Below are positions 1 through 12,342 of a DNA stretch of 12,434 nucleotides, in pieces. The translations under genes were made by a program, and so were the position numbers. Source of the stretch: a bacterium (GTDB lineage: Bacteria; Zhuqueibacterota; Zhuqueibacteria; Oceanimicrobiales; Oceanimicrobiaceae); contig JBHHXT010000141.1 of assembly GCA_046757165.1 (NCBI GenBank), positions 1-12,434 on the forward strand, in the 5' to 3' direction. The notes beneath the pieces were generated by a model. It had not been told where the DNA came from, searched no databases, and saw only the letters and a list, made by a program, of their open reading frames with translations. Within the stretch, counting starts at the first letter, position 1; the number at the start of each line of letters is the position of its first letter.

Positions 1-87
1 TTCTTCATGAATCAAACAGTATTCACATAAACGTTCTGCGCGAATGGCGACTAACTCTCTGAGTTCTTCAGTAACATAGCCACTCAT
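1..87 (-). CDS. Probable HNH endonuclease, N-terminal fragment (runs off the left edge of the window)
   Basis: Not in the ORF track. Manual translation from the ATG at 87 gives MSGYVTEELRELVAIRAERLCEYCLIHEE. The 'LR..V..RA...CEYC' pattern is the typical N-terminus with the first CxxC of small McrA-like HNH endonucleases. The ATG overlaps the upstream stop (ATGA at 84-87). The HNH motif itself lies outside the window. Confidence 0.8.
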   Translation of the reverse strand, partial: MSGYVTEELRELVAIRAERLCEYCLIHEE

Positions 88-326
88 GAGGCAACGTACC
101 GACGAGCCCGTGCTTTTGCAAGCCTCATGATATGTTCTAACTGCATATAGTTGTCCAATTCTGATTTTTCTTCTGAAGTGAGGCTGCTGGTTTTTTCCTT
201 ATGAATCAAATTGGCCACACGTTCTTTTGCAGTCTGTGAAGGTTCATAGGCAATAACATCATCTGGTTTCGTACCGGCTGCAATAAAATCAATTAGCTCC
301 TCATATGCTTTCGTCGTGGTGCCCAT
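84..326 (-). CDS. Small helical hypothetical protein (80 aa), translationally coupled to the HNH gene; possible antitoxin or partner
   Basis: MGTTTKAYEELIDFIAAG...LTSEEKSELDNYMQLEHIMRLAKARARRYVAS. The start is trimmed from 449 to the ATG at 326, because the extra 41 codons run through intergenic hairpins. The 'LT.EE..ELD.Y..LEH.MRLAKARA' pattern resembles small proteins I recall upstream of HNH genes. The gene is AT-rich. Confidence 0.8.
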   Translation of the reverse strand: MGTTTKAYEELIDFIAAGTKPDDVIAYEPSQTAKERVANLIHKEKTSSLTSEEKSELDNYMQLEHIMRLAKARARRYVAS

Positions 327-428: not shown

Positions 429-522
429 AGCATCCTCAAGGATGCTCAATCAAGGCCAGCGCCTCGACCAACAGGGCGCTTCAGCCTCCTTCCAAACCTG
501 AGCCGCGGGATTCATTCCGCGG
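429..522. repeat. Cluster of three further short inverted repeats
   Basis: AGCATCC-TCAA-GGATGCT (429-446); AGCGCC-N11-GGCGCT (458-480); CCGCGGGAT-TC-ATTCCGCGG (503-522, one mismatch). Confidence 0.6.
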
Positions 523-528
523 TGGTCC

Positions 529-3500
529 CTACTGCAGCAAAAGCATCTTCTTCGCAGCCACAAATTCGCCAGCCGTTAACCGATAAATATAGACGCCGCT
601 GGCCACGCGACGGCCCCGTCTGTCTAGACCATCCCACTGCACCCGGTAGACACCGGAACGCCGGCGATCGTCGACAAGGGTTCGGACTTTCTGTCCGAGC
701 GCATTGAAGATCTCGAGTTTGATATTTTTGCTGCCTGTGCCCTCCGGTACCTCGTACCGAATGGTCGTGCCCGGGTTGAACGGGTTCGGATAGTTTTGGC
801 GCAGGTGAAACCGCTTGGGCACGGCCGCCCGGGTGTCCTGGACCGAAGTCGTGATATCGAAATACTGCATCGCCCGCCCAATCACATCGGCGCGGACATC
901 CGGCGACTCGATGGTCTCGAATGTAAACGCGATGTAGATGAGCTGCGCTTCCTGGTCGCTGGTGCCATACTTGCCGGTGTACTGCACCGCAGCAATCCGA
1001 AGATTGTCATAACTCATCGCGACCTCGCTGCCGCCGTTCGGCAGGATGTAGTCAGGAAAATCCTCGATGTAAAGGTCGTCCGAGCTCAGGGTGCCGTAGG
1101 TGAAGTCCAACCCATCGAACACCGTGCCGCTGGCCCCGAGGACACGGTTCGAGCCAGAGAGATCTCCCAGGTAGCGTGCTTTCAGCAATTGTTGATAGCG
1201 GGCCTTTTCGGCAGAAGTCGTGGCATCAAAATCGTAGCCGATTTCGGAACCGGAGATGAAAAGCTTGCCGCCCTGCTCGAGATAGCTCATGAGCCGGCTC
1301 TGGTCGGCGGCCGCGAGAGACTCATCCGACCGGCTGTCATCGCCGCAGAAGTAGACGACGACCTCGTACTCATTCAGGTCGATGGCTCCGGTTTGAACCG
1401 CCGTTTCTGTGCAGGAGTCAAACCCGAAGCCATTGGCGGCCAGCGCCTCGCCATGACTGCGAACGAACGGATGGTGCGGTAATCGCCAGCTCGCCAGACG
1501 GTCGAAGTTGTCGACGATGAGAATATCTGCGGGTCTCTCAAAACCGACGCCGTAGATGTCTGTTGGCGGGCTCGAGAGCGGTTGCGGCTCCTGACCCTCG
1601 ATTTCAACGCGGTTTGTGTCCACGGCCACGACACGGAAGTAGACCGTCGGGCTGGTACCGGTGTAAGACACGATTTGCCGGGTCGCATCCGGTCCCAGCG
1701 TCTGCTCATCGTTGAGGGGGTCGTTCCATGTGCGGCCGTCTTCGCTCATGAACAAACGATAGCCGAGAATGTCCCCCTCCAGACCGGGATACCAGGCAAC
1801 TTCAATTTGCCGTGCAGCGCGGTCGAGGAGCTTCACCCATTTGAGCGTGGGAGCGGCAGGTTCGGTAAGCGGGTCGACCCGTTCGAAACGAAAGGCATCC
1901 AACATCAGACGCGTGTCCAAATCAGCCAACCCGCTGAGTTCGACATAGCCGGCCGCCGGATTTTCAGAAGAGAAGTGAACCGGAGTTGGGCTCAATGGCG
2001 CCCACTTTCTTAGATACACTCTGTTGTATTCAGCAAAATGGGGATGCTGCACCCCACTGGCACTGACAAATCTGTAGTGGGCGCTTTCTCCCAGAAAGGT
2101 GTTGTTCGAGGCCATCAACACCTGATAATCCCCGGTTTCCGCCACCACTGGAAATACACGAGCCCTGTGACTGCCGTCGTTATCTTGCACGATGAGCCGC
2201 ATGCCGTCATTCAGCCCCTCCAGGGAGACATCGCCGGCGTCCGTTTGCCATTGCCCGGAAATCTCAACCTCAGCATTGCGCATCGTGGAGGGTGACACGA
2301 TTTCGGCATGCAAGGCCTCGACTTCAATCTTGAACCGGTACTCGTACACCATGCCATGGGAAGGCTGGGCAAGGTCGGAGGCCTGCACTTCTACGAGCAC
2401 CGTTTGTGAGTTTGGAAAGACTTCTGCCGGGCGATATTGAATCCGGTATTCACTCGGCGTCCCTGTGATCTCGGGCGTCACCTGAGTCCCGTTGATGCGA
2501 ACGATGACGGAGCTGACATCGACACCTTCTTCGTCATCTCTCAGGGAGAACCCAATCGTGGCATCCGGCGGGATTTCCCGGGTGAAAGGTTGCGGCGCGG
2601 GATTGGCCACATAAGGCGCGCCAAAGCCAAGCGCGTTCCGGACGCGGTTGCGCAGTCCGGGCAGCTCGACATAGAGGTTGTCACCCGGGCAGTCCGTCGC
2701 TTTGTAGTCCCGATGGCCGAACAGGGAATCCGGATTCACGCCATAATGGTCAGAGAGCCAGCTCCACATGGCGACCACGCTGTCCAGGGCCTCCTGTGTC
2801 GGAAACTCGCCGGCAATTTCGAAATTGCCCATGTAGGCAATACCGATATTGCCGGTGTTATTGCCTCCCACGTGGGTGCCGCGAAAATCCGGTGGCACGC
2901 CCTCGTAAACCCGACCGGAATCATCCACGGTAAAATGGTATCCGATGTCCTGCCAGCCGCGCGCATTTTGATGAAAATCCTGGATAAACTTTTGTTCCGC
3001 AATTCCGTCGGCCAAGGTCGAAACCCGCTGACCGGCGGTATGATGCTGCGCAAAGCGGAACGGGTCATGCGGAACATAGTTGCCGATTGGCGGATTGGCC
3101 CCCCACTCTTCGCGGGTCACCGCTACCGGCCTGGGGATGGTGTCGGTTTGAGAAAACCGGAGATCGTCCCTGGGTTTGGCAGGGGCTGATTCTCCAGATG
3201 GCGCGGATTTCAGGTTCACCCCCTCGACCGCAAAGATCTCTATCTTCGCCGGCCATTTGGCGCCACGGTTTAGCCACCGGTATTTTATGCTCCGGGTTGT
3301 CTTGCCATCCTTCAAATCCAATTTCGCCCAAAACCGGCCTGTGTTAAACCGCTTCACGGTGACATCCTTCCAACCGCTCCACTTGCCTGTCTCATTCCGG
3401 AAGCTAAGCTGCAAAGCAAGGCTGGAATCCGAAATCGTGCCGTTTAAAAGAATGCGGTTAAAGGGCTCCCGACTCTGCGCACTCGCCGGAGACTGGTACG

Positions 3501-3663
3501 CAACCGAATCCGGCGCGCCCCTCGACAGATCCGCTTTGACCTCGACCTCGAGATTGGGGGCATTGTTAAACTTCAGCATCTCACCCGTCTCCTGCGCAAA
3601 CACTCCCCGGGTGAGAAACACAATCGTCGCCAAAACCGCAAGATATTTCGTCCATAGCTGCAT
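529..3663 (-). CDS. Secreted PGRP-like N-acetylmuramoyl-L-alanine amidase (Amidase_2) with Ig-like, golvesin/CBM-like, FN3 and alpha/beta accessory domains and a T9SS-type-A/FlgD-like C-terminal domain
   Basis: Signal peptide ending VFA/Q. PGRP motifs TREEWGA, HHTAG, HQNARGWQDIGYHF, GRVYEG, GNIGIAYMGNF, GHRD, TDCPG, so the Zn ligands His/His/Cys and the catalytic Tyr are present. FN3 motifs 'VAWYP..GYRL..VYFRVVAVD'. C-terminus 'LRQNYPNPFNP...WDG.D..G..VASGVYIYRL...KKMLLLQ'. The start is set at ATG 3663 (GAGAGGA ends 6 nt upstream); the alternative is 3678. Confidence 0.92.
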   Translation of the reverse strand: MQLWTKYLAVLATIVFLTRGVFAQETGEMLKFNNAPNLEVEVKADLSRGAPDSVAYQSPASAQSREPFNRILLNGTISDSSLALQLSFRNETGKWSGWKDVTVKRFNTGRFWAKLDLKDGKTTRSIKYRWLNRGAKWPAKIEIFAVEGVNLKSAPSGESAPAKPRDDLRFSQTDTIPRPVAVTREEWGANPPIGNYVPHDPFRFAQHHTAGQRVSTLADGIAEQKFIQDFHQNARGWQDIGYHFTVDDSGRVYEGVPPDFRGTHVGGNNTGNIGIAYMGNFEIAGEFPTQEALDSVVAMWSWLSDHYGVNPDSLFGHRDYKATDCPGDNLYVELPGLRNRVRNALGFGAPYVANPAPQPFTREIPPDATIGFSLRDDEEGVDVSSVIVRINGTQVTPEITGTPSEYRIQYRPAEVFPNSQTVLVEVQASDLAQPSHGMVYEYRFKIEVEALHAEIVSPSTMRNAEVEISGQWQTDAGDVSLEGLNDGMRLIVQDNDGSHRARVFPVVAETGDYQVLMASNNTFLGESAHYRFVSASGVQHPHFAEYNRVYLRKWAPLSPTPVHFSSENPAAGYVELSGLADLDTRLMLDAFRFERVDPLTEPAAPTLKWVKLLDRAARQIEVAWYPGLEGDILGYRLFMSEDGRTWNDPLNDEQTLGPDATRQIVSYTGTSPTVYFRVVAVDTNRVEIEGQEPQPLSSPPTDIYGVGFERPADILIVDNFDRLASWRLPHHPFVRSHGEALAANGFGFDSCTETAVQTGAIDLNEYEVVVYFCGDDSRSDESLAAADQSRLMSYLEQGGKLFISGSEIGYDFDATTSAEKARYQQLLKARYLGDLSGSNRVLGASGTVFDGLDFTYGTLSSDDLYIEDFPDYILPNGGSEVAMSYDNLRIAAVQYTGKYGTSDQEAQLIYIAFTFETIESPDVRADVIGRAMQYFDITTSVQDTRAAVPKRFHLRQNYPNPFNPGTTIRYEVPEGTGSKNIKLEIFNALGQKVRTLVDDRRRSGVYRVQWDGLDRRGRRVASGVYIYRLTAGEFVAAKKMLLLQ

Positions 3664-3738
3664 AATCTTTCCTCTCATACTATTGAAGTTAGTTGGAATG
3701 AAACTCTGCCTCCAGGTTCCCCCAACACGACAATGTCC

Positions 3739-3770
3739 CGTCTCACATTTGCCGTTTCACGTCTCACGTC
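3739..3770. repeat. Degenerate heptamer tandem repeat
   Basis: CGTCTCA CATTTGC CGTTTCA CGTCTCA CGTC, 7-nt period, directly after the M23 gene stop. Confidence 0.6.
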
Positions 3771-3771
3771 C

Positions 3772-6144
3772 TCATTTCAAAAGCACAATCGTCTGCGTTC
3801 TCTCGAAGCGACGGGCAGCATCGACTTCTTCGGCTCGTAAGCTCAAAATATAAACCCCGGCAGAGACGGGTCTCTCGAGATCGTCACGTCCCCGCCAGCT
3901 TACCCGGTGGACGCCGGCATGAACACGTCCCTGTACCAGCGTGCGGACTTTCTCGCCAAGCAAGTTGTAAACAACCATCGCCACTCTGGATTCGGCGGGC
4001 ACACCGTATTCTATCGTTGTCGCGGGGTTAAAGGGATTCGGGTAGTTGGGCGCAAGCCAGAACCCCTCCGGGACAGAAGCAGGCGTGTCCTCGTCCGCAG
4101 CCACAGATGTGATGTCGAAGAAAAATTGCAGAACGCGGGCGAAGACCTCGTTGCGGACCGCTTCGTCAGAGATCGTTTCGAACGGGAAGGTGGTGTAAAC
4201 CAGCCGCCCCGTTGCCACGCCCTCGCCAAATAGACCGGCCGACTGAATCGCCGCAATCTCACCCGTCGCATAACGCGCGCAGGCAACCGCACCTTCTCCA
4301 ACCGGAAGGATGAGATCCGGCGTCTCCACCCCATACGGCGTCTGCCCAAAATCGAACTGCAGACCTTCAAAAATCGCATCGTCCAGGCCCGTGACCTGCG
4401 TCCGGTTGGCTGCCTTGCCAGCGAAATCTGCTCTGAGAAAATCATGCAGGAACGCATCGTCCTCCGGAGTGGCGGCCGTTTCGGTGTCGACATCCAGGTC
4501 CCGGGCCACGTTTGCGCCGCTCAAAAACAGGGCACCGCCCTCCGCGAGATACGTCTGCACCAGAGCCTGCTCCTGCGTGCTGAAGGTTTCCGTCTCTGTC
4601 GATTCGTCGCCGAGAATCCAGAACACCGCCTCATAGCCGTTCAGATCCACCAGGCCAGCTTCGACGGCTTCGTTTGCTGCCGTATCGAAGCTAAACTGAT
4701 TTGCCACAAGCGCCTGGCCGTGCGTAAAAACAAAGAAATGATTCGGTTGGGTCCAGCCCCCGTCCTGCCGGTCGAAGCCGTCGACGAGGAGAACTTTCTT
4801 CAGAAAGGAGCCGTTGCTCATGCCGTAGACGTCCGAGGCGACACTTTCGTTTGGCAACGGGGCCTCATCAACCGCCGAAAGCCGAAAGTAGACGTCGCGA
4901 TTGAGCACCTGTAGAATGGTTGTGTCCACGATGCCAGCGGTGAAGACGTTTTCGTCCCGGAACAAAGACCAGCTCTGGTTGTCGAAGCTGAAGGCCAACC
5001 GGTAGCCGGCCAGGTCCGATTCGCCGTTTGGAAACCACGCCAGGCGGAGGCCCCCTTCGATCTCTTTCACAAACTTGAACGCAGGTTGTGCCGGGGCTTC
5101 CAGGTCGGACTCAACAATGGTGACAGCCGCAAAAACCGTGTCCACGTTTGCGCGCGTATCCTCAGTAAAGACCATGACAACATAGTCCCCCACCGGAAGC
5201 GCAGAGGTGTTCCAGAAATTGTCCTGCGACACATCGTTGGTGACCTGATAGACGTGGCTCGTCGTCGAGGAGAGCGACCTGAAATAGACGATATTGACGA
5301 ACGAATTGCTCGGCTTTGTGTCAAACTGAAATCGCACCCCGCCCGCCGGAGGCTCGAAAACGACAGTGCTCGTATCTGCGCTCAGGATTTTGTAGCCAAT
5401 TTTATAGGTGCCGTTGTTGCGCCGCGACGTTCGTGTCGTTGGTGGCCCGTTTTGCTCGTCTACTTTTACCACGATGTCGACCGGGCCGCTGAGGCGGTCC
5501 GCTGGCAGCTCGTTGGCTGTCTTGTTCTGGTAAAACTTGATGAAGCGAATAATCGGCGGCCACGGGTCCTCGTACGGGGTCAGCCCGGAGCCCGGCAGCA
5601 GGCTGTTTTTCTCGGAACCCACGAAGCCGTTTGTAAAATGCACATGCCCCAGACCTGATAAAATCGTGCCGAGCACGGTTTCAGAGGTGAAAACCGAGTC
5701 GCCGATGGAGAGCGCCGGGTTCGGACTGATGTGGACATAGGCCACATCCTGCACGCGCACGAAGGCACTCGAGCCCTGCGTCGAAAGGCTGGTCACGACA
5801 CCGTCCTTGACCGGGTACACCGGCGAGCCATCCGGCTTGGGGATGTCGGTTCCGTTGTGGAAATGCCCGTTCGGGCTCGTGCTCCGGTACTCCGCAAAGC
5901 TGCCCGTGATCTCCTGGCTCTGGTCAAACGGCGTGACCGGCCAGGGGAACTGAACCTGGGAGCTGGCCGGGCGCGCTGTCAGGACGACCATGAACGCTGC
6001 CAGCAGCATCCAGGGGTGGTCGAAAAAGAGACCTGTTCCCGCTTTCGGGGGCATGACAGAAAAACTGACCTCCTTAGACAGCCCGACGTCACAACTGCGC
6101 AACCCCCGGGTGTGTTTCCTGGAAAGTGGATTCTGGAAAATCAT
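3772..6144 (-). CDS. Secreted M23-family metalloendopeptidase with Ig-like, FN3 and alpha/beta accessory domains and a T9SS-type-A/FlgD-like C-terminal domain
   Basis: M23 signature: FPWPV..ITGSFAEYR..HFHNGTD (HxxxD)..GSPVYPVKDGVV..YVH..GHVHF (HxH). FN3 'LAWFPN.ESDLAGYRL...YFRLSAVD'. C-terminal NYPNPFNP...SAGVYIL domain. The start is uncertain: ATG 6144 overlaps the upstream stop (ATGA), and the in-frame ATG at 6054 lies nearer the hydrophobic signal ending PASS/Q. Confidence 0.9.
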   Translation of the reverse strand: MIFQNPLSRKHTRGLRSCDVGLSKEVSFSVMPPKAGTGLFFDHPWMLLAAFMVVLTARPASSQVQFPWPVTPFDQSQEITGSFAEYRSTSPNGHFHNGTDIPKPDGSPVYPVKDGVVTSLSTQGSSAFVRVQDVAYVHISPNPALSIGDSVFTSETVLGTILSGLGHVHFTNGFVGSEKNSLLPGSGLTPYEDPWPPIIRFIKFYQNKTANELPADRLSGPVDIVVKVDEQNGPPTTRTSRRNNGTYKIGYKILSADTSTVVFEPPAGGVRFQFDTKPSNSFVNIVYFRSLSSTTSHVYQVTNDVSQDNFWNTSALPVGDYVVMVFTEDTRANVDTVFAAVTIVESDLEAPAQPAFKFVKEIEGGLRLAWFPNGESDLAGYRLAFSFDNQSWSLFRDENVFTAGIVDTTILQVLNRDVYFRLSAVDEAPLPNESVASDVYGMSNGSFLKKVLLVDGFDRQDGGWTQPNHFFVFTHGQALVANQFSFDTAANEAVEAGLVDLNGYEAVFWILGDESTETETFSTQEQALVQTYLAEGGALFLSGANVARDLDVDTETAATPEDDAFLHDFLRADFAGKAANRTQVTGLDDAIFEGLQFDFGQTPYGVETPDLILPVGEGAVACARYATGEIAAIQSAGLFGEGVATGRLVYTTFPFETISDEAVRNEVFARVLQFFFDITSVAADEDTPASVPEGFWLAPNYPNPFNPATTIEYGVPAESRVAMVVYNLLGEKVRTLVQGRVHAGVHRVSWRGRDDLERPVSAGVYILSLRAEEVDAARRFERTQTIVLLK
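6035..6057. repeat. Degenerate dRS3-like / 'VIPAKAGI'-type palindromic element inside the 5' end of the M23 ORF
   Basis: The + strand reads GTTCCC-GCTTTCGG-GGGCAT-GAC, two mismatches from ATTCCC-N8-GGGAAT-GAC. It translates on the minus strand as VMPPKAGT. Confidence 0.5.
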
Positions 6145-7439
6145 CTTGCCTCGTACCAGTAGGTGGCGCGTCTAAATCTGACAAACAGCGTGCGCTGGTC
6201 CTCCGAAAAGAAAAGCCCTGGATGCGCGAACGTCTGTTCCGGAAAACCGTGCTCCTGTTGCAGGGCACCAGCCGGTCCGTATAGCTTCAGAATGGGGTTG
6301 ATAAACAGAAATCCGCTGCTGGTGTATTCACTTCTTGCCACCAACAGAGCGGCCAGGAGGCCCTGGTTCAGGATTCGTACCCCTGCGATCATCCCCTCCC
6401 GCCTTGAAATCTTTGCCGTCCAGAGGATCCGGCCCGATGGCAGGGCAACCACCGCTGCCCGGCTGTTTTCCGCCAGCAGCAAGCGTTTTGAATCCGCTGA
6501 GAAAGCTGCTCTCTTGAACAAAAAGTCATTTTCGCCCAGTTGCTTGCCCTCCTTGTCAAAAATGACGGTTGATTTGCTGACGGTGCCCTCCTTTTGCACA
6601 GAGTAGCTGCCTGCAGCAACAAACTCGCCGTCCGGAGAAATTGCCACCTGCAGCCCACTCTGGCCACGCAACACCACTCGCCACCTCTCCTCGCCAGTAC
6701 GCGAAAAATAAAAAACGTGCGGCCGGGCAGAAGGGTCCGGCGCTGCCGAACCGGGCGGCGCGGCGCCACGCTGACCGGCGACAGCGGCCAGCCACAAACC
6801 GTTGTCGCTCAGATCCAGATGAAGCGTGCGCTCCAGATCGTACGACGCCCCGGGGAAGAGATCGACCTGCCGTCTCAGGGCACCGTTTGCGTCATGAAAC
6901 AGAATCCGGCCGATCGGCGCAAGCCCCAGGACAAGCGCACCCTCGTCATCCGAAAGCAGCATGGAGGGCACACCCTCGTCATAAGCCACACCATGTTGCA
7001 GCGTAAACCGCTTGACCGCCTCCGACGTGTACACCTCGATGATGAGCGTTCTGTCGCTGACATTCCCATCCTGTGCCCACCTGGCGACGCCGACGTATCT
7101 TCCGCCCCTGGAGAGGATGGTCATGACCTGTCCAGTCGGGAGATCGAGTTTACGCCACACGTCGTTTTCAACCCGCCAAATCGATGCCTCTGTCACCGCG
7201 ATGAACGAATTGGGGAACGCATGAGAACGGTACCATGAAGAGACCTGCTCCCGGTGCTCAGCCATCCGAACCAGCTCGAACTTTGCCGGCTTTGTGCTCT
7301 GGCTCTGAACAGACGCGCCGGAGATAAGAAGGGCCGCAAAAGCCAGGCAGAAAAATGCCACCGGCTGGCGTAAGGTTCTCTTCGGGCCGTCCCTTCTGCT
7401 TTCCCCGGATACGTTTGGGCAAAGAGGCGCTGCAACCAT
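6141..7439 (-). CDS. Exported hypothetical protein, probable WD40/YVTN-like beta-propeller
   Basis: Hydrophobic signal (VAFFCLAFAALLISGASVQS/Q). Repeated blade-like motifs LSRGGRYVGV, LSDDEGALVL, LSDNGLWLAA, ISPDGEFVAAGS, FSADSKRLLLA, FSEDQRTLFV. It starts 2 nt after the upstream stop and its stop overlaps the next ATG. It has no NYPNPFNP domain. Confidence 0.8.
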   Translation of the reverse strand: MVAAPLCPNVSGESRRDGPKRTLRQPVAFFCLAFAALLISGASVQSQSTKPAKFELVRMAEHREQVSSWYRSHAFPNSFIAVTEASIWRVENDVWRKLDLPTGQVMTILSRGGRYVGVARWAQDGNVSDRTLIIEVYTSEAVKRFTLQHGVAYDEGVPSMLLSDDEGALVLGLAPIGRILFHDANGALRRQVDLFPGASYDLERTLHLDLSDNGLWLAAVAGQRGAAPPGSAAPDPSARPHVFYFSRTGEERWRVVLRGQSGLQVAISPDGEFVAAGSYSVQKEGTVSKSTVIFDKEGKQLGENDFLFKRAAFSADSKRLLLAENSRAAVVALPSGRILWTAKISRREGMIAGVRILNQGLLAALLVARSEYTSSGFLFINPILKLYGPAGALQQEHGFPEQTFAHPGLFFSEDQRTLFVRFRRATYWYEAR

Positions 7440-7441
7440 GA

Positions 7442-8398
7442 CTACTTCTCCATTTTGAAAATACGGCCACTCCGGCGTTCATCAAAGACGATGGTTTGAC
7501 CATCTGGGGACCAGCTCGGATTCATCTCGATCTGATCTTCGGTGGCGGTGAGGTTTTGCCGGCGCCCGCCACTCGCGTTGACCACAAAAATATCGGAGTT
7601 CAAAATCGTGTGCCCGTCATCCGTGGTGAGCATGAAGGCCAGCCACTGGCTATCCGGCGACCAGGTCGGTCGCTCTCCAGGCCCCAGGTCCCTAAGCTCC
7701 GAACCGTCCGCATGGACCACGAATAGATTACCACCGTACAGCTCGAACGCGACTTTGCTGCCATCGGGGGACAGCTCGGCTGAAAGGTAGGTTCCCTTCA
7801 GCGGACTCAGCCGGTACTGCTCATTTCCGAGCGCATCGAAGAAGACCAGCGCGTTGCCGGTATTGTAACAGACCGGGTAATCGCTGGTTTGCTGCAGCGT
7901 CGCCGGGCGCTGCGTCTCCAGAGTCTGAACCCCCCGGCGCGTGTTGAGCAAAACGCGCGAATCGTCTCCCGTCCACACGGGCAGGCCTGAAACCGAACCC
8001 CGAAATTGCGCCAGAACACGCGTCTCGCCAGCGGGCACGTCTACTGTCTTGATGAAATGCACGCGCCTGCGCCCGGCGTATTCGAAGCTGCGAACCACGA
8101 GGCGCCTGGAATCCCTCGACCACCTGAACCGGTAGCCAGCGCCGCGGTCCTTTAAAAGTTGCTGCAGGCCACTCCCGTCAGCGTTCATCAGCCAGACTCC
8201 CCGGTATCCCCTGCCCGCCATCGCGATGTGCTGACCGTCTGCGGACCAGACCGGCTGCTGCAAATAAACCTGCGCCGGAGACAGCGCCTGAGCCCGCGAA
8301 AAACCAGACTCGCGTTGAGCCGCAGCCCCCGTGGCGAAGGCGAGAACCACAACTGCTGGCAGAAGAAAGCGTTTCATCCTTTCCATCCTGTCGGTCAT
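7442..8398 (-). CDS. Exported PD40-repeat (TolB C-terminal-like) beta-propeller protein
   Basis: Six PD40-like motifs: PVWSADG, FRWSRDS, PVWTGDD, AELSPDG, PTWSPDS, PSWSPDG. Signal peptide MKRFLLPAVVVLAFATGAAA/Q. The start is trimmed from 8503 to ATG 8398 (ATGA overlap with the amidase stop); 8386 and 8377 are alternatives. There is no room for a TolB N-terminal domain. Confidence 0.88.
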   Translation of the reverse strand: MTDRMERMKRFLLPAVVVLAFATGAAAQRESGFSRAQALSPAQVYLQQPVWSADGQHIAMAGRGYRGVWLMNADGSGLQQLLKDRGAGYRFRWSRDSRRLVVRSFEYAGRRRVHFIKTVDVPAGETRVLAQFRGSVSGLPVWTGDDSRVLLNTRRGVQTLETQRPATLQQTSDYPVCYNTGNALVFFDALGNEQYRLSPLKGTYLSAELSPDGSKVAFELYGGNLFVVHADGSELRDLGPGERPTWSPDSQWLAFMLTTDDGHTILNSDIFVVNASGGRRQNLTATEDQIEMNPSWSPDGQTIVFDERRSGRIFKMEK

Positions 8399-10887
8399 TT
8401 CAACAAAATCATGCGTCTGCTTTCGGCGAAGTTGCCGACCCGAAGCCGGTAGATGTACACGCCGTTTGCTAGCAGGCGGCCGGCTGCGTCGCGGCCGTCC
8501 CACGGGATACGGTAGTGTCCGGCAGGCTGTACTGAATTCACCAGGGTCTCGAGATGCCGGCCGTTGAGGTTGAAGACCTGCAAAACAACCTTTGCGGACA
8601 AACCGGCTGTGGGCAGAATCTCATAGCTTATCACGGTTTCCGGATTGAACGGATTCGGGTAATTCTGCAGCAGCACAAACCGGTGCCGCCCTGCCGGCCC
8701 CCTCGAGCCTGGCGCCGCAAAGACCGGGGCCAATAGCCGGCTCACAAAGAAATCATCAAAGAACAACGTGCCGTGGCCCCGCGCTCTGAAGCCCAGCTCC
8801 AGACCCACGATGTGGATCCGCACGCCATCCAGGCGTCCGTTGCCGCCATCGCCTGCTTCCAGCTCTGCCAGCGCGAAGTCAAACTTCAGCAACCGCCAGC
8901 CGAACCAATCGATTGGAGTCCACGGAAACCCCTCCTCACCGTCAGAATCCCCGAGCAGCAGCCGGATTTCGTTCCGGCTCGTATCGCCGTAGATGTAAAC
9001 GCCAATTCCCTTGTCCTGTTCGAGATCGATCTCGACCTCTTGCAGCAGATCGAGCCGAACGACGCCCTGAGCGCCGACAAACTTGTACTCGAGCTCGCCC
9101 GAAAGCGTGTCCGAAAGGGCCACCCGGCCTGACGCGGTAAACGAGGTGCTGTCGGGGTCGATGTGCTGGGTCCCCGGGGAGTCGTTGGGGTCGGCCCACT
9201 GGAACGGGCCTTCAAAATCATCCCAGAAATTCAGCCCGACGCGTGCCGTCTGCGTGTGAAACTGCCACCTGAAATTCCGCCTCATCGGTGTCCCGTCCAC
9301 CAGGTGCAGGCCTGTCGCCAGGGTCATGAAATAGCGCGCAGATGCAGGCACGGGCTCGACCGGAACGGCAGTCAAGGTGTGGGACCCATCCTGCAAATAG
9401 TCCACATGCAGATCAAAGGTCCCTCCCCCGTCGGAGGTCAGCAGCACCGTGGCCGGGTTGACGGTTTCGGGATCCAGCTCCCGGTTGAAGCGGGCCTGAA
9501 AAACGTCCCGGATGAAGACGCCGGTGTCGCGCCGGGTCGGAACAAAATCCAGCACCACCGGGCTGCTGTTGTCGAGGGATTGTGTCTTGAAGCTCCAGAA
9601 GAAATCATCGCCGGCCGTCCCATCGCCGTTGCCGTCCAGAGGGCGTCCAAACGAATCGGTGGCAGAAGCCGAGATGCGAACCGTGTACTCGGTGTCGAAA
9701 TCGAACCGGGTGTCCGGCTCGAACAACACGACGTCGCTGGCGTCGCTCCAGATAAAATGTCCCCGGGCGGCGGGCGTGACACCAAAGGCCGTCTCGACAC
9801 TTTCTCGCTGCATGGAACGGTTGAACCGGGCGCCAATCTCTTTGTACACATCCACGCCCACAGCCCCGTTGGCCGGGACCGTCAACGTGACAACGGGCGG
9901 CGTATTGGCCGGCAGCTCGAGATCGGAGAAGGTGAACTGATGCTGCCGCACGTCGACCTGCTTTTGGGTTTCCCCGGATCCTGCCAGTGCCGCGCTGACG
10001 CGATAGCTGCCCGGCTCCAGATCCTGGAAAGCATAAAAGCCGTTGCCGTGGTTGTCGGTGGTGAAGGTCATCCCGCCCGGCACGAGCGTGACCACTGCGC
10101 CATTCACGGTTTCTCCACTGGCCTCATCTGTTACGATGCCGGCGAGCGTACCGGTCGTCATTTGGCCGGCCTCAAAGAACTCCAGAAATGCCATGTAAAT
10201 GGCCTGCGCTTCCAGGCGCAGAAACGATTCGCTGCGCAGCTTTCTCTCTTCGACCGGGTTATCATGAAAGGTTGCTTCAGATAACTCACCGGGCATGAGC
10301 AAGTCATTCAGGACGCCCAGACTAAAGCCGCCGTTGCATCCGCCGAAAAAGGTCCAGTCCAGACGGTCTGTAAAGGCGGAGGTACGCAACGCGGCAAGAA
10401 TCCGTTGCGCTATGATCTTGCTGGCGGCGTCGGCCAACCCCGGCCAATCGGGCTGACCCGTGCCACGCGGACTCCCGTTTGGACACAGATTCGCCGCGGT
10501 TCTCTCCTCCTCGTACAACAGAAGCGTTGACCGCCGCGTGCCATCCAGGGCATTGTGGTGTACGGAATGGAACCAGTCCACCCCAAAGGTGTTGGCCAGA
10601 GCTTCCCGCTGGCTCAAAGACGGATTGGTCGAGTCGTCGACCCTGGTGAGCAAAACCGTATCAATGTTGGCACGCTTGAGAAAATCCTTCAAAAGCAGGG
10701 CAACACGCACATTGACCTCGGCTTCGCGCAGGCCGGTGGGTCCGTGATTCGTGTTGCCCCTTCCGTGGCCCGCGTCGACACAGATGCTCAGGCCCGAAAG
10801 GTCCTGCGCCAGCAGCGCGCCGCCGTAGATGGGAAAAAGCACGGTGAGCAAGAAACTCAAACAAAATCGTAGAGGTCTCAAAACCAT
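8395..10887 (-). CDS. Secreted N-acetylmuramoyl-L-alanine amidase (Amidase_3) with a carboxypeptidase-regulatory-like domain, two Big_5-like Ig domains, a CBM-like domain and a T9SS-type-A/FlgD-like C-terminal domain
   Basis: Motifs ICVDAGHG, EAEVN, LLTR, SLSQR..LAN, FHSVHHNA, LGVL...MPGELSE, so the Zn ligands H/E/H and the catalytic E are present. Next is 'GTLAGIVTD..SGE...GAVVTL...GFYAFQDLEPGSYRV', then two 'P.V....P.....GV........FNR' Ig repeats, then a 'DDFE...GIGVYIYGD...IDWFGW...FFDD' beta-sandwich, then LLQNYPNPFNP. The start is set at ATG 10887; the alternative is TTG 10920. Confidence 0.92.
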   Translation of the reverse strand: MVLRPLRFCLSFLLTVLFPIYGGALLAQDLSGLSICVDAGHGRGNTNHGPTGLREAEVNVRVALLLKDFLKRANIDTVLLTRVDDSTNPSLSQREALANTFGVDWFHSVHHNALDGTRRSTLLLYEEERTAANLCPNGSPRGTGQPDWPGLADAASKIIAQRILAALRTSAFTDRLDWTFFGGCNGGFSLGVLNDLLMPGELSEATFHDNPVEERKLRSESFLRLEAQAIYMAFLEFFEAGQMTTGTLAGIVTDEASGETVNGAVVTLVPGGMTFTTDNHGNGFYAFQDLEPGSYRVSAALAGSGETQKQVDVRQHQFTFSDLELPANTPPVVTLTVPANGAVGVDVYKEIGARFNRSMQRESVETAFGVTPAARGHFIWSDASDVVLFEPDTRFDFDTEYTVRISASATDSFGRPLDGNGDGTAGDDFFWSFKTQSLDNSSPVVLDFVPTRRDTGVFIRDVFQARFNRELDPETVNPATVLLTSDGGGTFDLHVDYLQDGSHTLTAVPVEPVPASARYFMTLATGLHLVDGTPMRRNFRWQFHTQTARVGLNFWDDFEGPFQWADPNDSPGTQHIDPDSTSFTASGRVALSDTLSGELEYKFVGAQGVVRLDLLQEVEIDLEQDKGIGVYIYGDTSRNEIRLLLGDSDGEEGFPWTPIDWFGWRLLKFDFALAELEAGDGGNGRLDGVRIHIVGLELGFRARGHGTLFFDDFFVSRLLAPVFAAPGSRGPAGRHRFVLLQNYPNPFNPETVISYEILPTAGLSAKVVLQVFNLNGRHLETLVNSVQPAGHYRIPWDGRDAAGRLLANGVYIYRLRVGNFAESRRMILLK

Positions 10888-10936
10888 GTCGCCAACAACC
10901 TTAGTCCTGTTTTTCAGCAATTAGATGACATATCGC

Positions 10937-11012
10937 CTCACGCAAAGCCGCAAAGTCCGCAGAGAAATGAAGGTCAAGAACAAACTCTGCGCGCTCGGCG
11001 TCTTTGCGTGAG
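10937..11012. repeat. 76-bp imperfect inverted-repeat element (CACGCAAAG...CTTTGCGTG type)
   Basis: Outer arms CTCACGCAAAG (10937-10947) and CTTTGCGTGAG (11002-11012). Inner arms CGCAGAG (10958-10964) and CTCTGCG (10985-10991). There are internal CGCAAAG/CGCAGAG sub-repeats. Confidence 0.8.
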
Positions 11013-11057
11013 ATTAAATACGTAATAGTATTTACGAATTCCTGTACTTAGTTATAG

Positions 11058-12308
11058 TTAGTCATAAAGCAAATACCTTTCTCTTTTTGCCAGGAATTGG
11101 TTGAGAGATTCTTGCCAGTTGGCGCGCAACCGTGACAGGTCTTCCCTGTTTTGGATCGCCTGACGCAAACTGTTCGTGCCACAAAGCCGGTCAAAGTGCC
11201 AGGTATGCCAGCTCGAGCTGTCAGGATAGAGCGCAAAAAGCGTCTCAACAATTTTCAGGCCCAGCCAGTAGGGGCGCAATCGCGCCCGGTCCACGATCCG
11301 GATCTCGGCGCCAAAACATTCTCGCCCCAGATACTTCGGATTCGATGCGACGCCCGGAATCGACCGGGGCACGAAAGCGGCTGGCAGAAAGCGCACCCCC
11401 TCTAACTGCAGGTTCACAAGCCTCGCGACCAATTTCTCGCTCTCCACCCAGGGCGCGCCGAAGATGCGGAAGGGCATGTCTGTCCCGCGCCCCTCTGAGA
11501 CATTCGTCCCCTCGAGAAGACACAAACCGGGATAGAGCGCGGCCGAACGCAGATCAGGGATATTTCCGGACGGCGGGATAAACGCCAACCCGGTGTCACC
11601 GTACCACAGGTTCCGGCGCCAACCTGACATGGGAACGACCTTCAAGTCGACTCTCAGGCCGTTCTTCAGCCAGCCTTCTTCGTTGAACATCCTCGCCAGC
11701 TCGCCGACGGTCATCCCGTGCCGCACCGGAATCGGAAAAAGTCCGACAAAGGTGGCAAACTCCGGCTCCAGCAAGTTGCCCTCGACCTGTTCACCGCCGA
11801 TGGGATTGGGACGGTCCAGAACAACGAATTTCACGCCCTGCTCAGCCGCTGCCTCCATCGCCAGCGCCATAGTGTAGATGTAGGTGTAAAAGCGCGCCCC
11901 GATGTCCTGAATGTCAAACACCAGGACCTGGACGTCCATGTCGCGCAGCATCTCAGGCGTGGGTTTGCGGGTCCTGCCGTACAGGCTGTAAACCGGAAAG
12001 GGGTCTGCCACATGATCCGCCGAATCGATTTTCTCTCCCCTTTCAACGGCGCCGCGCACGCCATGCTCCGGCCCGTACAGGGCGACAACTTCGACCCCTT
12101 TCATGTGGCCGAAAACGTCGACGATGTAGCGCTGCTTTGAATCGTAGGCCGTTTGATTGGTGATGATGCCAACACGTTTGTTTCTGAAAAGGGCTGCGTG
12201 CTGCTCGACATTGTCCAGCCCGGTTCGAACCGTGCCGTCGCTGCACGCCAGAAATAGGAGAAGTAAACCAAGCGGTCTGTGGACTGTGATCCCGGTCGTT
12301 TTGTTCAT
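11058..12308 (-). CDS. namZ: DUF1343 / NamZ-family exo-beta-N-acetylmuramidase (GH171), probable lipoprotein
   Basis: Family motifs VRTGLD, RVGIITNQT, PEHG.RG, YSLYG.TRKP, FDIQDIGARFYTY, LDRPNP, RHGMTVGELA, EGTNVSEGRGT, FDRLCGT and terminal RERYLLY. The N-terminal LLLLFLA-C22 is lipobox-like. Confidence 0.95.
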   Translation of the reverse strand: MNKTTGITVHRPLGLLLLFLACSDGTVRTGLDNVEQHAALFRNKRVGIITNQTAYDSKQRYIVDVFGHMKGVEVVALYGPEHGVRGAVERGEKIDSADHVADPFPVYSLYGRTRKPTPEMLRDMDVQVLVFDIQDIGARFYTYIYTMALAMEAAAEQGVKFVVLDRPNPIGGEQVEGNLLEPEFATFVGLFPIPVRHGMTVGELARMFNEEGWLKNGLRVDLKVVPMSGWRRNLWYGDTGLAFIPPSGNIPDLRSAALYPGLCLLEGTNVSEGRGTDMPFRIFGAPWVESEKLVARLVNLQLEGVRFLPAAFVPRSIPGVASNPKYLGRECFGAEIRIVDRARLRPYWLGLKIVETLFALYPDSSSWHTWHFDRLCGTNSLRQAIQNREDLSRLRANWQESLNQFLAKRERYLLYD

Positions 12309-12314
12309 CCCCTT

Positions 12315-12342
12315 AATCTATCAAAACAAGATCAAATGTCAA
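12315..12342 (-). promoter_or_regulatory. Candidate sigma70 promoter for namZ and the cluster
   Basis: Minus strand: TTGACA (12342-12337), 16-nt spacer, TAGATT (12320-12315), 6 nt, then the ATG at 12308. Confidence 0.6.

Follow-up and report, generated by a model that had tools for sequence, protein, structure and literature searches.

Gene content and organization of the locus

The stretch of DNA analysed here (the window) makes up one complete contig, 12,434 bases long, from a draft genome (6.09 Mb, 54% G+C, rated 99.98% complete) of a bacterium of the phylum Zhuqueibacterota (KSB1). It contains six genes, all on the minus strand and in the order NamZ, Amidase_3-CTD, PD40 propeller, PropA, M23-CTD and Amidase_2-CTD, in which CTD denotes the C-terminal domain of type IX secretion system (T9SS) cargo and PropA an unannotated beta-propeller protein. 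The conserved units among these genes are two pairs of an enzyme and a beta-propeller (Amidase_3 with PD40, and M23 with PropA), which an initial annotation of the same DNA, proposing an operon for extracellular peptidoglycan degradation, had left unexplained. The features of the window are as follows (coordinates, strand, description).

12315..12342, minus: weak candidate promoter, a sigma-70-like site (TTGACA-16-TAGATT with TG, 10/12 match)
11058..12308, minus: NamZ (GH171) exo-muramidase homologue; lipobox LFLAC, GPEHG glutamate, no CTD
10937..11012, no strand: long intergenic inverted repeat, REP-like, between namZ and the amidase gene, seen in the sequence
8395..10920, minus: Amidase_3 with CarboxypepD_reg, two Big_5 domains and a type-A CTD; TTG start, alternative ATG at 10887
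7442..8398, minus: PD40 beta-propeller with signal peptide and without CTD, partner of the Amidase_3 gene
7610..7621, minus: tip of a long beta-hairpin in the PD40 propeller, with the motif DDGH, of which the first Asp and the Gly do not vary in 84/84
6141..7439, minus: PropA, unannotated WD40-like beta-propeller of 432 amino acids with Sec signal peptide, lacking both lipobox and CTD, partner of the M23 gene
3772..6144, minus: M23 metallopeptidase with a conserved second domain, the shared module of ~440 residues and a type-A CTD
529..3678, minus: Amidase_2 (PGRP-like, HHT..YHF..GHRD..CPG) with an N-terminal domain, the ~440-residue module and a type-A CTD
503..522, minus: G+C hairpin just 3' of the last gene, without T-run, seen in the sequence

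The six co-oriented open reading frames of the initial annotation are all present, as are its two ATGA overlaps (8398-8395 and 6144-6141) and its gap of 2 nt (7441-7440). Judged by the shape of the signal peptides, the PD40 gene and the M23 gene may really start a few codons downstream (ATG at 8377 and at 6054, respectively), so that the overlaps, though present, need not reflect translational coupling. The candidate promoter, a sigma-70-like site matching at 10/12 positions, is weak, because five such sites were found where 3.8 are expected. The G+C hairpin after the last gene lacks a T-run and is absent from the list of the scan.

Domains, active sites and tails of the encoded proteins

Profile searches recovered NamZ_N (E 9e-82) and NamZ_C (1e-49) in the product of the first gene, in agreement with its earlier assignment to DUF1343/NamZ, and Amidase_3 (3e-20), Amidase_2 (7e-19) and PD40 (7e-20) in theirs. 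For the M23 protein the motifs are intact but the Pfam match is weak (5e-4) and below the Pfam cut-off; its HxxxD and HxH motifs are invariant in 38/38 homologues, and a structure search with its profile finds M23/LytM proteins (best E 4e-5). The catalytic motifs of all three hydrolases, described earlier as intact, are conserved across the homologue alignments: the Zn ligands H12/E26/H81 and the catalytic E175 of the Amidase_3 domain (Pfam match over the cut-off) are invariant in 84/84 paired homologues, and the Amidase_2 protein (also over the Pfam cut-off) shares with 7/7 aligned sequences the His/Tyr/His/Cys motif set that we take to be catalytic. The NYPNPFNP-type CTDs of the three hydrolases were recognized by TIGR04183 with 35.2, 27.8 and 28.8 bits (cut-off 23).

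NamZ has the GPEHG glutamate in its sequence; in Bacillus subtilis NamZ the catalytic residue is Glu92 (PMC8054146). Since it starts with a lipobox and has no CTD, NamZ is not T9SS cargo. No endo-glycosidase is encoded among the genes of the locus.

The M23 and Amidase_2 proteins have a module of ~440 residues in common before the CTD (window 3772-5109 and 529-1870; 41% identity), which is unannotated, combines an FN3-like with an alpha/beta domain, and also occurs on GH18 and NlpC/P60 cargo, with weaker forms on M28, M1 and GHL10 cargo. It could be a wall-binding or assembly module. The N-terminal domain of the Amidase_2 protein (window 3139-3594, minus strand) resembles that of Rv3811 in language-model features (0.85; a lead only) and could act in cis as a cap, so that this enzyme would need no partner.

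Secretion and salvage genes elsewhere in the genome

Core T9SS components were found in the genome: SprA (contig C16) and PorV (16 loci) scored over their cut-offs, and PorU (contig C13) reached 844 bits against a cut-off of 420. The three CTD enzymes are predicted from their sequences to leave the cell via the T9SS translocon. CTD genes are common in this genome (140 open reading frames with an NxPNPF-like motif, 165 by profile), and 11 of its contigs hold three to four NxPNPF-like frames each, so that three CTD genes on one contig are not in themselves unusual; what stands out at the locus is the enrichment of CTD genes for wall hydrolases. These are distinct from the housekeeping candidates, four Amidase_3 genes without CTD and eight other M23-containing genes, which lie elsewhere. 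A second M23 protein with a CTD, of another type (L416:622-2400, contig C337), has no propeller neighbour on its 4.6-kb contig.

The search for N-acetylmuramic acid catabolism yielded a MurQ-like SIS protein (contig C8) and AnmK (C25), both on contigs other than that of the locus. Further salvage genes, some of them for stem peptides, are a 942-residue GH3 frame (C322) and an SH3-NlpC/P60 peptidase gene that adjoins an MLE epimerase gene. In relatives, salvage genes also adjoin the same wall-hydrolase genes.

Conservation of the gene set

Across 167 genomes of the Zhuqueibacterota, the Amidase_3-PD40-PropA-M23 core was encountered on one contig in only four (the window's own genome, G004, G005 and G010), and a conserved six-gene operon is not supported. 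Both enzymes occur in 49 genomes, Amidase_3 alone in 42 and M23 alone in five, while the long type of Amidase_2 is restricted to 10, with 31 others showing short, weaker matches only. Other wall-related neighbours in relatives include GH18-CTD, NamZ, MurQ-like, SH3-NlpC/P60, MLE epimerase, an amino-acid permease and a beta-lactamase-fold protein. Given these varied neighbours and the rarity of the gene string, it is the theme (wall degradation and salvage) that is conserved and not the gene set; older two-gene modules were brought together into the six-gene string at the level of the family.

This bears on the possibility that the locus is one self-contained operon whose products act in sequence outside the cell, the propellers helping only incidentally in substrate binding or uptake. 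One relative (G005) does keep five genes in the window's order. Beside the pairs, relatives repeatedly carry genes for NamZ, a MurQ-like protein, SH3-NlpC/P60, MLE epimerase, a permease and GH18-CTD, and NamZ of B. subtilis acts sequentially with NagZ and AmiE (PMC8054146). However, with the core in so few genomes, 42 genomes carrying the amidase without M23, and each propeller tracking one enzyme and not a pathway (see below), we consider this quite improbable, the more so as NamZ lacks a CTD, the locus lacks an endo-glycosidase, and the relatives' GH18-CTD query gave no GH18 match in the window's genome.

In several relatives a gene for GH18, the ~440-residue module and a CTD directly follows the M23 gene (L021:9542-12073, L022:4464-6962, L027:3045-5543 and L030:4731-6962), without a partner gene; this enzyme may be the missing glycan cutter. 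In another relative (G007; L026:8778-9779) only a pair of short frames is left of the Amidase_2-CTD gene, next to genes for SH3-NlpC/P60 and MLE epimerase.

The Amidase_3/PD40 pair

Within the phylum, Amidase_3-CTD is present in 91 genomes and the PD40 family in 93, with both in 87, and a propeller gene adjoins 83 of 100 amidase genes (upstream in 62, downstream in 21). Outside the phylum, the best 80 of at least 453 confirmed PD40 loci in the GTDB collection, among whose record labels are Ignavibacteria, Rhodothermales, Marinimicrobia and Calditrichia, include 71 with the amidase; seven of the remaining nine are short or lie at a contig end and two are neither. Two complete pairs stand in tandem at at least seven loci, with the second-copy amidases grouping together and the second-copy propellers likewise. 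In the PD40 family the Asp-Gly of DDGH is invariant at the hairpin tip, and a Glu is nearly so. No natural Amidase_3-PD40 fusion occurs in the best 120 of 315 longer proteins, which is weak evidence. An apparent covariation of amidase H78 with a propeller Asp was rejected, as the Zn ligand is the invariant H81, and the effective alignment depth of 54 is too low for contact prediction.

The M23/PropA pair

PropA, which matches no Pfam or NCBIfam family, accompanies the M23-CTD gene closely: in the same 167 genomes M23-CTD occurs in 54 and PropA in 56, with both in 53 and adjacent in 47. The three genomes with PropA only comprise two contig-end cases (bins 80% and 56% complete) and one weak match. 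A single PropA sequence retrieved two homologues and a profile 182 (E<=1e-30), the best 150 of which contain no long fusions. The enzyme is more conserved than its partner (39-80% against 20-42% identity), and two acidic loop residues of PropA stand out, an Asp (6980-6978) in 49/54 and a Glu (6833-6831) in 54/54. The distance correlation of the paired families (Pearson 0.64) was left out of account as a sign of co-evolution, since related organisms have a common history.

Among 131 genomes of the class Ignavibacteria, 18 carry the M23 gene and 15 of these match the PropA profile, eight with PropA directly downstream and seven with it unlinked. The unlinked homologues are frames of 360-398 residues (HHalign 97.6%, E 3e-12) that keep both acidic motifs. 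Seven M23-negative Ignavibacteria genomes gave profile matches as well, with E values (2e-7 to 1e-4) that reach into the range of the weakest of them; but the matches in these M23-negative genomes are short and mostly lie within long proteins or generic propellers. At 41 metagenome M23 loci PropA is adjacent in 21, 11 belong to a clade with other flanking genes and nine show none, some of them at contig ends. In the clade of 11 (L283-L307) the M23-CTD gene, with its catalytic residues retained, lies between two genes that are presumably Rho-like and GWxTD-like, and the propeller is elsewhere in the genome. Genes of ~420 residues flanking distant M23 homologues were considered as propellers and rejected (HHalign probability <=2%).

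A third pair in relatives

The ~440-residue module also led to a CTD protein of 620-660 residues in relatives, with an NlpC/P60-like N-terminal domain in which GxDCS and a His are invariant (Pfam NLPC_P60 weak in 14/17; best PDB matches Spr/MepS, E 0.007). In its close form, the gene is preceded by one for a 300-residue propeller with a signal peptide, adjacent in 11/11 genomes (L358:3077-5870, L402-L412) and often beside SH3-NlpC/P60 and MLE epimerase genes. This propeller is of the NHL/SBBP type, has an invariant EAEG motif, occurs in no genome besides those 11 at E<=1e-12, and is again less conserved than the enzyme (30-55% against 68-82% identity). For 12 genomes with distant forms of the enzyme a propeller partner was not demonstrated. 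The pair is absent from the window's genome, where weak matches of the third propeller profile proved to be NHL proteins of a generic kind with unrelated neighbours. No close kinship joins the three propeller families (HHalign 1-81%).

At the other end of the window (1-326, minus strand), an 80-residue open reading frame overlaps (ATGA 87-84) a frame running off the contig, the start of which we take to be HNH endonuclease-like, and is preceded by a 15-pair hairpin with a T-run (410-378). These elements are probably unrelated to the locus.

Possible function of the propellers

The presence of two beta-propellers was upheld by structure models, which are confident and all-beta (pLDDT 95.0 for PD40 and 94.3 for PropA), PropA folding as a beta-propeller though it matches no family. 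Their PDB matches are generic propellers only (10-20% identity), and in both models the invariant acidic residues are placed in loops. Both proteins have signal peptides, as read by eye, and no CTD; PropA homologues are of the Sec type, with a lipobox pattern in 2/63. They are, therefore, predicted to be addressed to the periplasm. Of 153 CTD open reading frames in the genome, only those of Amidase_3 and M23 adjoin a small propeller match, in a biased control with three profiles.

Before it is exported, T9SS cargo is freed of its signal peptide and folds in the periplasm (PMC11285876). A folded amidase or M23 endopeptidase would there encounter the wall of its own cell. Classically, a one-to-one partner that has no export tag and is addressed to the periplasm marks an inhibitor, and gene linkage, co-occurrence and co-duplication, by which a hydrolase and its cognate inhibitor may be recognized, were all observed. 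We thus favor, with somewhat better than even confidence and on the basis of sequence, the interpretation that the propellers are cognate periplasmic inhibitors that shield the producer's wall while the folded enzymes cross the periplasm. Following Sec export, the enzymes would fold in the periplasm, as is established for T9SS cargo, where the cognate propeller would cap the Zn site, probably via its conserved acidic loop, with PD40 blocking Amidase_3 and PropA blocking M23 during passage through the own wall. Export by SprA/PorV would strip off or leave behind the partner, and PorU would remove the CTD. Outside, the enzymes would, to judge from their families, cleave the cross-links and stems in walls that are foreign or left by dead cells, and the lipoprotein NamZ, GH3, AnmK, MurQ, the SH3-NlpC/P60 peptidase and the MLE epimerase, whose genes are all present, could consume the fragments. 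The pairs would thereby serve a wall-scavenging or lytic lifestyle, on dead or live target cells.

Beta-propellers are general interaction scaffolds, and they might instead be folding chaperones, escorts or activators that hand the enzyme to the translocon or form a two-protein holoenzyme with it. This would explain the one-to-one pairing, the co-duplication and the unlinked co-occurrence equally well. It seems, nevertheless, unlikely to us, since about 150 other CTD cargo genes have no such neighbour (three profiles), the partners go with three lytic wall enzymes of differing chemistry and not with cargo generally, and the invariant acidic loop residues would suit the capping of a metal site.

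Another explanation is that the enzymes remodel the own wall, in turnover, daughter separation, or a filament or S-layer, under TolB-like regulation by the propellers. The PD40 repeats, the fold matches to TolB and the high conservation of the enzymes agree with this, and the T9SS is possibly one without the known motor: GldM and GldN gave no match in the genome, although control genomes were equally silent and GldK and GldL were not searched. However, the genes are patchily spread, with whole families devoid of them (0/19 and 0/12), separate amidases without CTD and separate M23 genes are available, and the CTDs together with SprA, PorU and PorV point outward. TIGR02800 (TolB) scores the PD40 protein at 80 bits against a cut-off of 343, only the propeller being matched and the N-terminal TolB domain being absent. 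Own-wall remodelling is, in our opinion, decidedly doubtful.

Several observations also weigh against cognate inhibition. One is that GldM and GldN were not found, in searches in which the controls were silent too, which bears on how cargo would be released. No partner match was obtained in 3/18 Ignavibacteria and 1/54 KSB1 genomes with M23, in 4/91 genomes with Amidase_3, or adjacent to 20/41 metagenome M23 loci; incomplete assemblies may account for some of these. Two amidases flank one propeller in two genomes. In conservation the PD40 propeller comes close to its amidase (45% against 51% mean column identity), which fits a cofactor or enzyme role too. Amidase_2-CTD, the relatives' GH18-CTD and the second M23-CTD have no neighbouring propeller, so that not every exported wall enzyme requires a guard encoded beside it. 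Finally, the pair counts overstate the association because kin are not independent.

More broadly, deep-branching FCB bacteria (KSB1, Ignavibacteria, Rhodothermia, Marinisomatota and Calditrichota) may export a bacteriolytic arsenal via a motor-less T9SS, with three independent recruitments of a beta-propeller as periplasmic immunity protein (for Amidase_3, M23 and NlpC/P60), a scenario that we offer tentatively, with rather less than even confidence. If true, these lineages would be widespread lysers or recyclers of walls, and the guards would explain how they digest foreign walls without self-digestion. Abundant uncultured lineages of sediment and wastewater would come into view as organisms that actively recycle or lyse the walls of bacteria. 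How a wall hydrolase crosses the periplasm without killing its maker is now a directly testable question, as cultured carriers exist by record label (Roseithermus sacchariphilus, with both pairs, and Rubrivirga sp.). The interpretation also provides a candidate function for genes that are annotated, in their thousands, as 'TolB family' or 'hypothetical', and candidate specific inhibitors of Amidase_3, M23 and NlpC/P60 enzymes. To our knowledge and according to our literature searches, the propellers would be the first protein inhibitors of such kind for Amidase_3 and M23 enzymes.

Comparison with known systems

The enzyme families and the logic of enzyme and inhibitor are each already known. 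Neither T9SS wall hydrolases with propeller partners nor the present loci were described in the literature searched, which did not extend to subscription journals and supplements and contained nothing joining KSB1 with type IX secretion or Zhuqueibacterota with peptidoglycan. A survey of KSB1 suggests wall components as food and, in its accessible part, does not mention amidase (PMC9012183).

TolB shares with the PD40 protein a periplasmic propeller of the six-blade type, but the latter lacks the N-terminal TolB domain and a tol-pal context and is tied to an amidase gene. The salvage operon murQ-murR-murP-amiE-nagZ-namZ of B. subtilis is similar in its NamZ homologue and in a sequential digestion that feeds MurQ (PMC8054146). 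It is, however, exo-acting and without T9SS tags, whereas here a lipoprotein NamZ stands beside lytic-type CTD enzymes. The locus contains only namZ of such an operon, the MurQ-like, AnmK and GH3 genes being on other contigs.

Closer in logic is Bd3460 of Bdellovibrio, which shields the producer's wall from exported endopeptidases, including products of an unlinked locus (PMC4686830). It differs in its ankyrin fold, in its serine DD-endopeptidase targets, in that one guard serves two enzymes, and in belonging to an invasive predator.

The potempins of Tannerella forsythia, encoded with the KLIKK peptidases, share with our pairs the combination of a T9SS cargo enzyme with a linked gene for an untagged cognate partner, and they inhibit the linked peptidases, PotA via an Asp on the catalytic zinc (PMC9890683). 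This acidic warhead is a plausible parallel to the acidic loops of the propellers, for which inhibition is only inferred whereas it has been demonstrated for the potempins. These are surface lipoprotein barrels of 98-132 residues that act as guards against proteases after export, in contrast to the non-lipoprotein propellers of 300-430 residues found here with wall hydrolases.

The amidase pair Tse1/Tsi1 relies on injection by the type VI secretion system, whereas delivery here would be by the T9SS, and Tsi1 is a partial propeller of three sheets that occludes Tse1 (PMC3391265); the matches listed for the propellers of the locus include no sequence or fold match to Tsi1. Nevertheless, it resembles our pairs in coupling a peptidoglycan hydrolase to a linked periplasmic, propeller-like partner, and also in its swapping gene order, its conserved enzyme and more variable partner, and its conserved loop.

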